Shown here piece after piece: positions 20,264-22,920 of a DNA stretch of 37,414 nucleotides. A program made the translations under genes and the position numbers. This stretch comes from a virus (Duplodnaviria > Caudoviricetes). The notes under the pieces are model-generated. The model had not been told where the DNA came from. It did no database searches and saw only the letters and a program-made list of their open reading frames with translations. Numbering within the stretch: position 1 is the first letter of the stretch; each line of letters opens with the position of its first letter. Location of the stretch: positions 1-37,414 of the IMG/VR virus record IMGVR_UViG_3300044709_000239; one strand, 5' to 3'.

Positions 20264-20345
20264 GCTATGTTAGCTCAGGCAGTTAGAGCACTTATGAGGT
20301 TAGATTCCTTATGGGGGGTCGTTGGCGCAACTCCAACACGTAGCT
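20264..20345 (+). tRNA. Non-canonical tRNA-like RNA (9-bp anticodon arm, AGA in a 7-nt loop, no encoded CCA)
   Basis: Acceptor GCTATGT/ACGTAGC, D stem GCTC/GAGC, arm CTTATGAGG/CCTTATGGG, variable GGGTC, T stem GTTGG/CCAAC. Confidence 0.8.
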
Positions 20346-20351
20346 TCTCAT

Positions 20352-20519
20352 TTAATTGCCACCCGCTTGGCAACTCAGAGACAGCATAATTCCTTTAGGG
20401 GAAACTCTCAAATATGCTCAATCTCATGCGGAATTATTCGGCTCACCCCTAGCCAATGAAGAGACGGTCTGGTGCGATTGCATGTTGTGACCTACACCCA
20501 ATCTCATGGGGAATTTTTC
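20352..20519 (+). ncRNA. Tandemly duplicated structured RNA motif (two ~80-nt units)
   Basis: Each unit: CACCC-loop hairpin, GAGAC, variable hairpin, CAATCTCATG(C/G)GGAATT; the loop/tail pairing covaries. Confidence 0.55.
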
Positions 20520-20566: not shown

Positions 20567-20662
20567 TAGCAAAGATCGCTTGATCTTAATGATTTCTTTG
20601 TCCATACTTGGTGTGATTGCAAAATTTTGCGCAATCTATCTTAACAAAGTAGGAGTCACAAC

Positions 20663-21166
20663 ATGCAAGCAACATCAAGACCTGTATCTTATTGGGGATA
20701 TGATGCCCCACGAGAGCAGGCAATAGAAGAAGCGCATTCTTCATCTTCCGAAGCATCAACACCGCCAGATTCACCAAAGATCGTCCAGTTTAACGGATCT
20801 ATCTCAGGACAGTCCACTCGTGCTACAGATGAGATCGATAGACTAGGTAGACTTCTTGTCAATGAACAAGCCCGAACTGCAGTGCAGGCAAATTTGATAC
20901 AGGAACTCAGGACAAAACTAGCGGAAGAAATCGAGAAGAATAGGGTGATAAGTGCCGAAGCGCCTCGTAGAGCAGAACAGGCAGCACAACAAGCGACTGA
21001 GGCTGCCGACAACCACTACTATCAAGCTGGGCAAGACCGACAACAGGAAGCAAGTTGGTTTGAAAAATATCGTGCTATGTCATGGGGTTCTTTAGGGCTG
21101 GCTATGGTTGGAACTGCTGTTGCTGTGGCAGCTATAGTGATGCAGATTTTCCGGATGGTGAAATAA
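20663..21166 (+). CDS. Tail-anchored coiled-coil protein (candidate effector)
   Basis: AGGAG RBS; S/P/T-rich N-terminus, central coiled coil, C-terminal TM LGLAMVGTAVAVAAIVMQIF followed by RMVK. Confidence 0.8.
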   Translation: MQATSRPVSYWGYDAPREQAIEEAHSSSSEASTPPDSPKIVQFNGSISGQSTRATDEIDRLGRLLVNEQARTAVQANLIQELRTKLAEEIEKNRVISAEAPRRAEQAAQQATEAADNHYYQAGQDRQQEASWFEKYRAMSWGSLGLAMVGTAVAVAAIVMQIFRMVK

Positions 21167-21666
21167 TGCGAATGACCGACTTTAGTTTTTTCCCGCAAAA
21201 GCCTTTCACACCGCAGACATTGCCTCAACTGCCACGCGAACTTATGGCTATCATCATCAATAACATGAGCCTACAAACTTTATTGTCATTCGAAAGATGT
21301 TCTAAAGCATGGGGGCAAGAAATCAATGAAAGCTACCGTCTACAAACAGCTAAAGATATGCCTGAAAAATATGCTCCGGCCTCTGCATTCCCCAGAAACA
21401 CATGGAAGAAGTTCTATTTCAACAACAATGAATTTGTCCGTGTGCGGCATTTAAATCAGATTTCACTAGCTAAAGAAGGGCCAAAAGTATGTCAGATTAG
21501 CAATGAAATATCGCAAATGGCCATAACTATATCGGTCGGCAATTTTGTCTGTTTAGTTGCGCCACCAGTTCTATCAAGTGTTTTAGCCCTTCCAGTGTTG
21601 GGTCAATTCGTATTATGGGCTGTAGGAGATACGGAAAAATCAGCAAGATATGAGGCTCCAGTATGA
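21166..21666 (+). CDS. F-box domain protein with C-terminal hydrophobic anchor
   Basis: LPQLPRELMAIIINNMSLQTLLSFERCSKAW fits the F-box consensus; downstream WKKFY; ~37-aa hydrophobic segment; TAATG coupling gives start 21166. Confidence 0.75.
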   Translation: MRMTDFSFFPQKPFTPQTLPQLPRELMAIIINNMSLQTLLSFERCSKAWGQEINESYRLQTAKDMPEKYAPASAFPRNTWKKFYFNNNEFVRVRHLNQISLAKEGPKVCQISNEISQMAITISVGNFVCLVAPPVLSSVLALPVLGQFVLWAVGDTEKSARYEAPV

Positions 21667-22115
21667 TATCACCGAGAGCAATGGAGTCTCAGCCTCTATT
21701 AGATTCTTTCCAGCGCATAAAACCTCAGTGGGAGATTGACTCTGATAATGAACTCGCTGAAACACATAGACAAGTTGCTGCATGGAGAGACGAATCTAAT
21801 GCTCAATGTGCCGAGAACGCAATTAATCTTGAGATCATAAGAGCCTCATTTGCTAGTATCGATGAATCCCACACTCAAATGGCAGCTATTAGAGCTAGAC
21901 GTCTTGCAGAGGAAAACATGCCCTTTGCAGAGCGTGTTGAGCGGCGAAAGATCGTCATCCTAGAGAACCTTACATGGCTCCTAGAAGCTACCAAGCGTAT
22001 CTTTTCCAATATGCCTAAGGTGTTTCAAGCAATTGCAGCAATGATAGCAACTGTAGCTATGGCGATTCTTGGCTATGTAGCATATAGACATATTTCACCT
22101 ACTATATCCCAGTAA
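21663..22115 (+). CDS. Tail-anchored helical protein with N-terminal ExxxLL motif (candidate effector)
   Basis: MISPRAMESQPLL; helical/coiled-coil body; TM VFQAIAAMIATVAMAILGYVAY; ATGA coupling. Confidence 0.8.
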   Translation: MISPRAMESQPLLDSFQRIKPQWEIDSDNELAETHRQVAAWRDESNAQCAENAINLEIIRASFASIDESHTQMAAIRARRLAEENMPFAERVERRKIVILENLTWLLEATKRIFSNMPKVFQAIAAMIATVAMAILGYVAYRHISPTISQ

Positions 22116-22119
22116 AACA

Positions 22120-22150
22120 GGCTCACATGCAAGTGTGAGCCATATAATTT
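22120..22150 (+). terminator. Hairpin/terminator after the three-gene cassette
   Basis: GGCTCACAT-GCAA-GTGTGAGCC followed by an AT-rich tail. Confidence 0.6.
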
Positions 22151-22230: not shown

Positions 22231-22920
22231 ATGTGCGATGAGCATAGACATCACGATCATAAATGTTGTTCTTGTGTAGGTCCTCAAGGACCTCAAGGCG
22301 TTATAGGGTTACAAGGACCACAGGGAATCCAAGGCGTTCAAGGATCTCAGGGTATCGATGGGAAAGATGGCCTGCAAGGCGTTCAAGGCCTTCAAGGAGT
22401 TGCTGGGAAAGACTGCGAATGCGACGAAAGAATGTGCAATTGCTGTGGATCTCATGCTAGTGTATATGCTACTCTGGCCCAATCTCTATCGGAATTTGGA
22501 GGTGGTAGCGATGCTGTGACTTTCCAGGGAATCAATTCCATATCAGCAGCTAATTTTGATTTAACAATGATGGGTGTGGACGGGTCTATAAAATTCCTTA
22601 AATCTGGCGTATATGACATCAGTTATAGCGCCGAAGCTAAGGTTCGACCACCTATCCCTAATCCTGTGCCATCATTTTCATTTGGATTTTGGCTGAATAA
22701 CATTGTGGTACCTGGTAGCGTAATCTCAGGGTATACTCAAGCTCCTGGCGATGACACAATACAGATTGTTGCTGAAGTGATAATCGACGTACAAGCCGGC
22801 GATGTCCTTATGTTAAGGAATGCATCCAGCAATCCTGTTCTGATGACTCCTAACGTCATTGGAATTATGTTCCCTGTAAATGTTGCAGGTATAACAATAC
22901 ATTGCATAAAATCTCTGTAA
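22231..22920 (+). CDS. Collagen-like protein with BclA/C1q-like C-terminal beta-sandwich
   Basis: ~15 Gly-X-Y triplets flanked by Cys clusters; GSIKFLKSGVYDISYS...IIDVQAGDVLMLRN; GAGGT RBS. Confidence 0.85.
   Translation: MCDEHRHHDHKCCSCVGPQGPQGVIGLQGPQGIQGVQGSQGIDGKDGLQGVQGLQGVAGKDCECDERMCNCCGSHASVYATLAQSLSEFGGGSDAVTFQGINSISAANFDLTMMGVDGSIKFLKSGVYDISYSAEAKVRPPIPNPVPSFSFGFWLNNIVVPGSVISGYTQAPGDDTIQIVAEVIIDVQAGDVLMLRNASSNPVLMTPNVIGIMFPVNVAGITIHCIKSL

Follow-up and report, generated by a model that had tools for sequence, protein, structure and literature searches.

What are three small genes for apparently membrane-anchored proteins, one of them bearing an F-box, doing in the genome of a tailed phage? 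The locus lies in a window of 37,414 nt, the whole stretch of DNA analysed here, which is a complete, circular virus record with a 127-nt terminal repeat (positions 1-127 and the end). Within this complete phage genome the three genes form one compact unit. Our reading, to which we give a probability of about one half, is that the three proteins are exported, sit in a membrane and recruit SCF there, likely acting as secreted effectors for an environmental chlamydia.

Layout of the three-gene cassette

The first-pass annotation had described a self-contained three-gene unit, and the layout bore this out: the ORFs overlap at TAATG and ATGA junctions, AGGAG precedes gene 1, and a hairpin stands at the end. 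The features, in window coordinates, are as follows.

20478..20497, + strand: upstream arm, complementary to the RBS and first codons of gene 1, with a 14-nt perfect core at 20478-20491; predicted translational block
20650..20668, + strand: RBS AGGAG, gene 1 start codon and downstream arm of the inverted repeat
20663..21166, + strand: gene 1, 167 aa; N-terminus rich in Ser and Pro, helices in the middle, predicted membrane segment at 138-163 and a basic tail of 4 residues; arranged as a tail-anchored protein
21166..21666, + strand: gene 2, 166 aa from the TAATG start; F-box and short extension, then a 40-residue uncharged stretch
21220..21321, + strand: F-box domain, gene 2 residues 19-52, PF00646 match
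21663..22115, + strand: gene 3, 150 aa (144 from Met7); ESQPLL, long helix 22-115, predicted membrane segment 120-141, 9-residue tail
22120..22141, strand not assigned: terminator-like hairpin after gene 3, 9 pairs, possibly bidirectional

On the - strand this hairpin has a better T-tail than on the + strand. The cassette GC content (0.42-0.47) was near the genome-wide value of 0.42. Translational coupling had also been claimed; the overlaps are present, but coupling at exactly those overlaps is plausible only, since alternative starts are called for genes 2 and 3, the database gene calls placing them at residue 3 and residue 7, respectively. Directly past the cassette lies a collagen-repeat and BclA_C-like gene (22231-22920), with relatives at 43-50% in five related loci.

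Hydropathy analysis agreed with the earlier description of a C-terminal hydrophobic segment in all three proteins (gene 1, 138-163; gene 2, 115-154; gene 3, 120-141) and none at the N-terminus. Genes 1 and 3 each have a single uncharged run, of 26 and 22 residues, respectively, which gives one membrane segment near the C-terminus and, with no signal peptide, a tail-anchored arrangement as judged by hydropathy only. The coiled-coil bodies reported at first stood only in part: gene 3 models as one long helix, but on a crude heptad score genes 1 and 3 were weak, at the 66th and 77th percentile of 642 proteins. The three N-termini were ordinary on a crude Ser/Thr/Pro score (82nd, 45th and 59th percentile). 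No holin family was matched by the cassette proteins and no endolysin is adjacent, and holin-like behaviour would have told against the first-pass reading. SNARE mimicry by the cassette proteins was also considered and was dropped, as no SNARE match was found in Pfam or PDB sequences at loose thresholds.

Gene 2 carries an F-box

The F-box that the first-pass annotation read in gene 2 was upheld, with PF00646 matching residues 19-52 at 23.7 bits against a Pfam cut-off of 20.5. A word-index homology search with gene 2 returned only gene 2 itself. Three relatives matching over the full length (P0010-12; 30-34% over the alignment) came from a full HMMER search, and no genomic context was found for them. 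These relatives retain the F-box, a 'WK..YF' extension and the hydrophobic segment, and the F-box of P0010 is likewise above the Pfam cut-off (25.7 bits). Set against the two-lobed hydrophobic domain of Inc proteins, the uncharged run of gene 2 spans 40 residues with a central Pro-Pro, while its equivalent in the relatives spans 19-25 residues. Three further proteins from the HMMER search (P0013-15) were unrelated repeats proteins and were dropped.

The structural model of gene 2 was confident (pLDDT 70-90) only at about residues 21-90, with helices at 24-32, 36-45 and 47-64. Among its fold matches, none of which reached E <0.001, Fbs2, Fbx4 and Skp2 complexes were within the top six in the PDB, and the top eight viral matches were all F-box proteins of giant viruses (of protists). 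No LRR, WD40, ankyrin or TPR substrate-binding domain was found in gene 2, where the F-box is trailed only by the short extension and the hydrophobic stretch. In 7 of the 401 Chlamydiota genomes, a profile of gene 2 weakly matched small F-box proteins that share the 'WK..YF' extension, and no trio like the cassette was present around the 8 chlamydial matches. A search of annotated phages with this protein and with the F-box protein of a related phage, G003 (see below), gave nothing beyond one row at E=0.8. To our knowledge, an F-box has no partner inside a bacterium, so gene 2 likely acts in a eukaryote. We predict from these features that gene 2 is a membrane-anchored F-box protein binding eukaryotic Skp1.

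Gene 3 carries a dileucine-like motif

The ExxxLL motif attributed to gene 3 is present as ESQPLL at residues 8-13, but it is not constant: LL is replaced by LV in one strain contig and in P0020, the only relative of gene 3 found (67% identity; no genomic context found). P0020 starts at the position matching gene 3 residue 7. An ExxxLL motif occurred within the first 25 residues in 20 of the 1667 proteins of the window's phage family, a background of 1.2%. The acidic dileucine EQSPLL, by which membrane proteins reach the yeast vacuole via AP-3 (PMC6314561), is similar to ESQPLL, and LL is kept in the third gene of G003; the LV form in P0020 and the strain contig weakens an AP-3-type sorting reading.

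Strain variation in the cassette

Strain contigs from three other runs, several of them shallow, contained 38 coding differences, one in-frame insertion and no stop, and all three frames were open. Gene 1 had no relatives (the word-index homology search returned only gene 1 itself), and its strain differences were 15 silent and 10 replacement against an expected silent fraction of 0.23 (p=8e-5), which shows that gene 1 is under purifying selection. In genes 2 and 3 together, 5 of 13 differences were silent, an excess that is not significant (p=0.14).

These counts bear on the reading that the cassette is neutral passenger DNA from a chlamydial effector locus, carried with no benefit. Turnover of the F-box families of chlamydiae is rapid and due in part to drift (PMC4209131), and gene 2 itself had 2 silent and 5 replacement differences, as such a passenger might. 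However, the frames have stayed open, the only indel is in frame, gene 1 is selected and gene 3 has a relative at 67%; moreover, no such trio surrounds the chlamydial matches to the gene 2 profile. We therefore regard a neutral passenger as very doubtful.

A predicted translational block upstream of gene 1

The window contains only one 14-nt perfect inverted repeat of its kind, in which 20478-20491 pairs with the gene 1 spacer and start codon, the pairing extending into the RBS. The duplex of the upstream arm with the gene 1 start ranked 2 of 2043 gene starts, and the 501-nt region around the repeat had a fold z=-3.5. The predicted energies do not tell the strands apart (-48.4 vs -46.2 kcal/mol). 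Two strain contigs had at least 8 differences just upstream of the 14-nt core and, among those listed, none inside it. The upstream arm is thus predicted by folding to mask the gene 1 start in the RNA; because the pairing extends into the RBS, RNA pairing is preferred over DNA inversion. Inversion at the repeat by the phage resolvase left no strand-switch joints in 6 runs, a result that proves nothing on such short contigs. No Rfam family was found upstream of the cassette.

Two other elements were observed in this region. A 21-nt direct repeat (20419-20439 and 20499-20519; 90% alike, 80 nt apart) brackets the upstream arm and is a possible operator pair. A degenerate tRNA-like cloverleaf at 20264-20345 was missed at default settings and called tRNA-Leu at a lowered threshold, and over its 5' half it resembles a stretch of L084 at 85%.

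The phage genome and its family

Family matches in the window identified a portal, major head protein, terminase, Erf/RecE recombination genes, a DnaC-like loader, a methyltransferase and a 187-aa serine recombinase. A profile search of the window gave no match to tape-measure, sheath or baseplate families, from which we infer a probably short-tailed virion, and no integrase, clear repressor or ParA was found in the window. No cultured phage was close: the portal matched 21 of 50,697 records, all at <60% identity (best about 22%) and none from Wolbachia. Portal relatives in IMG/VR comprised 325 stretches, of which the best 80 were used. Genes were called in 50 related records (44 viral and 6 from Chlamydiota bins), a few of them cut at 40 kb with the loss of genes spanning the cut points.

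Relatives also carried genes for TROVE/Ro60, RtcB, RNA ligases and Tad2-like anti-Thoeris proteins (L170:1657-3006, L132:7714-9042, L160:8117-9223, L190:18857-19408, L115:18390-18839). ParA-type genes in some of them (L106:3281-4230, L230:6161-6811) hint at plasmid-like prophages.

Related phages carry variable ubiquitin-ligase-type cargo

The first-pass annotation had asked whether relatives carry variable cargo, and the results showed that ubiquitin-ligase-type genes differ between related phages. In the 50 viral records, Pfam matches over the cut-off were an F-box in G003 and G016 and a U-box in G012 and G017; G001 has a U-box-like relative at 27% identity with no Pfam match. The F-box gene of G016 belongs to a chlamydial F-box family. 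The U-box-type genes of G001, G012 and G017 come after membrane-protein genes, and neither the G003 F-box nor the U-box family turned up again in viral contigs. Five of the six cargo-bearing phages, the window among them, clustered in a single portal clade of 17 rows (FastTree tree of 96 rows with local support only). The second cargo type, a membrane-protein gene followed by a glycine-zipper and U-box gene, was located at L117:234-1599, L106:4540-6128 and L125:14083-15380, and in G001 and G012 it faces a tail-fibre-like cluster.

A trio of anchor, F-box and ExxxLL-anchor genes recurred in 1 of the 50 related records, G003 (portal 71%), at a different locus. It encodes a coiled-coil protein with C-terminal hydrophobic segments, an F-box-like protein (35.4 bits vs a cut-off of 24.3) and a helical ERRSLL protein with one C-terminal segment, and its genes are linked by ATGA overlaps. 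In the third genes of both phages a Met precedes ExxxLL. The G003 trio follows recE in an early, recombination operon, whereas the window trio follows virion genes, and G003 has no room for a comparable leader before its trio. BLAST of the window cassette proteins against the G003 trio gave no similarity, and because of this the common descent of the two trios is not shown.

The position of the window cassette, behind the virion genes and on the same strand, could also suit a role in phage exit, in which proteins made in the lytic cycle would act, after bacterial lysis, on inclusion or host membranes and on the ubiquitin system, and so free the phage from the eukaryotic cell. The predicted RNA block suggests that the cassette is normally off, the window has no integrase, and no peptidoglycan hydrolase was matched in the window or in 150 rare or 60 shared proteins of the relatives; a similar role has been discussed for the WO module (PMC5062602). 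However, the trio is present in only one of the relatives examined and is hence dispensable for the life cycle, and the G003 trio sits in an early operon. We consider an exit function distinctly unlikely.

Genes 1 and 3 might instead encode bacterial inner-membrane proteins acting in superinfection exclusion, abortive infection or lysis timing, with the F-box gene as a separate passenger. Phage morons often encode single-pass proteins that have a cytoplasmic helix, and a regulatory arm over the start codon resembles the mRNAs of toxic membrane proteins. The Atlas clusters nearest to gene 3 were likewise unnamed bacterial and phage proteins, at a score of 0.84, below the lead threshold. In contrast, no holin, exclusion or other family was matched, and two dissimilar phages have the same order around the F-box gene, with ExxxLL in both third genes against the 1.2% background, which makes an inner-membrane role quite improbable.

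Relatives point to a probable chlamydial host

The first reading would have been at odds with relatives mainly in phages of free-living bacteria; the best evidence favours Chlamydiota instead. We hold Chlamydiota to be the likely host phylum, an assignment that rests on links of the relatives, the window phage itself having no direct host link. Portal relatives occurred in 6/400 genomes of Chlamydiota (the phylum of a Simkania bin) and in 1/401 of Bacteroidota, the latter being the search centre; with search centres removed, the counts were 5/399 and 0/400 (p=0.03). An apparently whole prophage of the window's family lies in a 137-kb Chlamydiota chromosome contig (G340:C1, about 45000-79000; L187, L188), flanked by pfk and kdsB-pyrG-ruvX. 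It has 8 genes in common with the window and is distant, its portal being only 27% identical and on a long branch.

The cargo pointed the same way. The G016 F-box family was present in 33/401 Chlamydiota and 0/201 Pseudomonadota genomes, and the U-box cargo has a near full-length relative, next to an F-box-like gene, in a chlamydial chromosome (G202; 1 of 5 chlamydial genomes tested). Among bacteria, F-box proteins occur nearly exclusively in groups associated with amoebae, with Chlamydiae in the lead (PMC4209131). Plasmids and a small shared phage protein gave no host clues, and one 'provirus' record (G030) was set aside as a clue: it abuts a gene of 66% GC (vs 42%) that is not chlamydial-looking, and the junction is probably chimeric.

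Close portals also occurred in 12 genome bins, on contigs of at most 41 kb: 1 Chlamydiota, 4 Bacteroidota, and others of Patescibacteria, Proteobacteria, Nitrospiraceae and an archaeon, a spread that we read as misbinning. The four Bacteroidota bins are compatible with the same effector mechanism in another intracellular bacterium of protists (Legionellales, Rickettsiales, Babelota or Amoebophilus) using another secretion system, and those groups encode F-box proteins too (PMC4209131). The portal counts covered Chlamydiota and Bacteroidota genomes, and the G016 F-box counts covered Chlamydiota and Pseudomonadota genomes. Set against such a host are the enrichment of portals in Chlamydiota, the integrated copy and the two cargo families common to chlamydial chromosomes, and we judge it very improbable.

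Proposed function and known systems

F-box proteins connect Skp1-Cullin ligases with their targets, and many proteins of the expanded bacterial F-box families are predicted type III substrates (PMC4209131). We propose that the phage may be maintained within a Chlamydiota cell, either as a prophage or in plasmid-like form, where the unit would be expressed under the control of the RNA arm masking the gene 1 start. The bacterial type III system would then export the three proteins, a route that fits because they have no signal peptide. Their C-terminal segments could insert in a membrane with the protein bulk toward the eukaryotic cytosol, the products of genes 1 and 3 lying in the same membrane as that of gene 2. 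The dileucine-like motif of gene 3 may steer them toward endosome or vacuole membranes, on which gene 2 would dock the SCF ligase. Because gene 2 is without a substrate-binding domain, its targets might be supplied by genes 1 and 3 or via the membrane segment, or gene 2 might be a Skp1 decoy. Remodelling of the vacuole membrane by the cassette proteins, as first proposed, is conjecture.

A wider version of this reading would hold that an undescribed, widespread tailed-phage family infects environmental Chlamydiae and shuffles ubiquitin-ligase effectors, the trio being a self-assembling membrane-bound SCF-hijacking unit whose partners give substrate receptor and organelle address, with an RNA-arm switch; in that full form we think it rather unlikely.

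Among known systems, the chlamydial F-box and U-box effector families (NEX1, NEX2 and the wider F-box superfamily; PMC4209131) resemble gene 2 in the N-terminal F-box and the 'WK..YF' extension. Unlike those described there, gene 2 is phage-borne, has a membrane anchor and no LRR or TPR, and is flanked by two tail-anchored genes; the main text of that paper uses the word 'phage' 0 times. In the Inc proteins described in PMC3048545, a loop of 3-22 residues links two membrane segments. Like these, genes 1 and 3 encode small, helix-rich orphan membrane proteins without a signal peptide, but the Inc likeness drawn by the first-pass annotation was not supported for them, as each has one membrane segment instead of two and no Inc family was matched. 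Three small genes in a relative (L167:17484-18522, G038), with two hydrophobic segments each, are nearer the Inc pattern than the window genes.

The eukaryotic association module of WO and Symbioviridae (PMC5062602, PMC9203015) is likewise found in phages of a likely intracellular bacterium and carries eukaryotic-type domains, one of them ubiquitin-related (PRANC in WO). The window phage is unrelated: no WO record is among its 21 portal matches, and it has no baseplate/PAAR or large serine recombinase match, only the 187-aa resolvase-type recombinase. It has tiny genes and a true N-terminal F-box, whereas WO, as described, has giant ankyrin proteins. A phage-bacterium-eukaryote system outside WO, as claimed in the first-pass annotation, would not be a new concept.

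EHEC NleG effectors lie on lambdoid prophages. These type III U-box ligases (PMC2891834) share with the cassette the character of exchangeable phage cargo, ubiquitin-ligase mimicry and, in our reading, dependence on a bacterial secretion system; the window differs in its phage family, its likely obligate intracellular host, an F-box in place of the NleG fold and a membrane-anchored three-gene unit. In our reading the cassette acts as effector cargo of a known kind; it belongs to neither the Inc nor the WO family, and its phage, likely host and arrangement are new. A phage has reportedly been described in a cryptomonad symbiont. The open literature searched gave no description of the window's phage family or of phage-borne chlamydial F-box cassettes, and supplementary host tables may already list such phages. 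Phage-derived genes on two plasmids have been described in chlamydiae (PMC7846284), and unclassified viruses are predicted to infect Chlamydiales (PMC12644861).

If our reading is true, phages would be one means by which environmental chlamydiae replace their ubiquitin-related effectors so quickly. It would also mean phage conversion in a phylum for which the literature searched records nothing beyond phage genes on plasmids, small chlamydiaphages and unclassified predicted viruses. The cassette would then provide a very small anchored F-box module, directly testable in yeast or amoebae.
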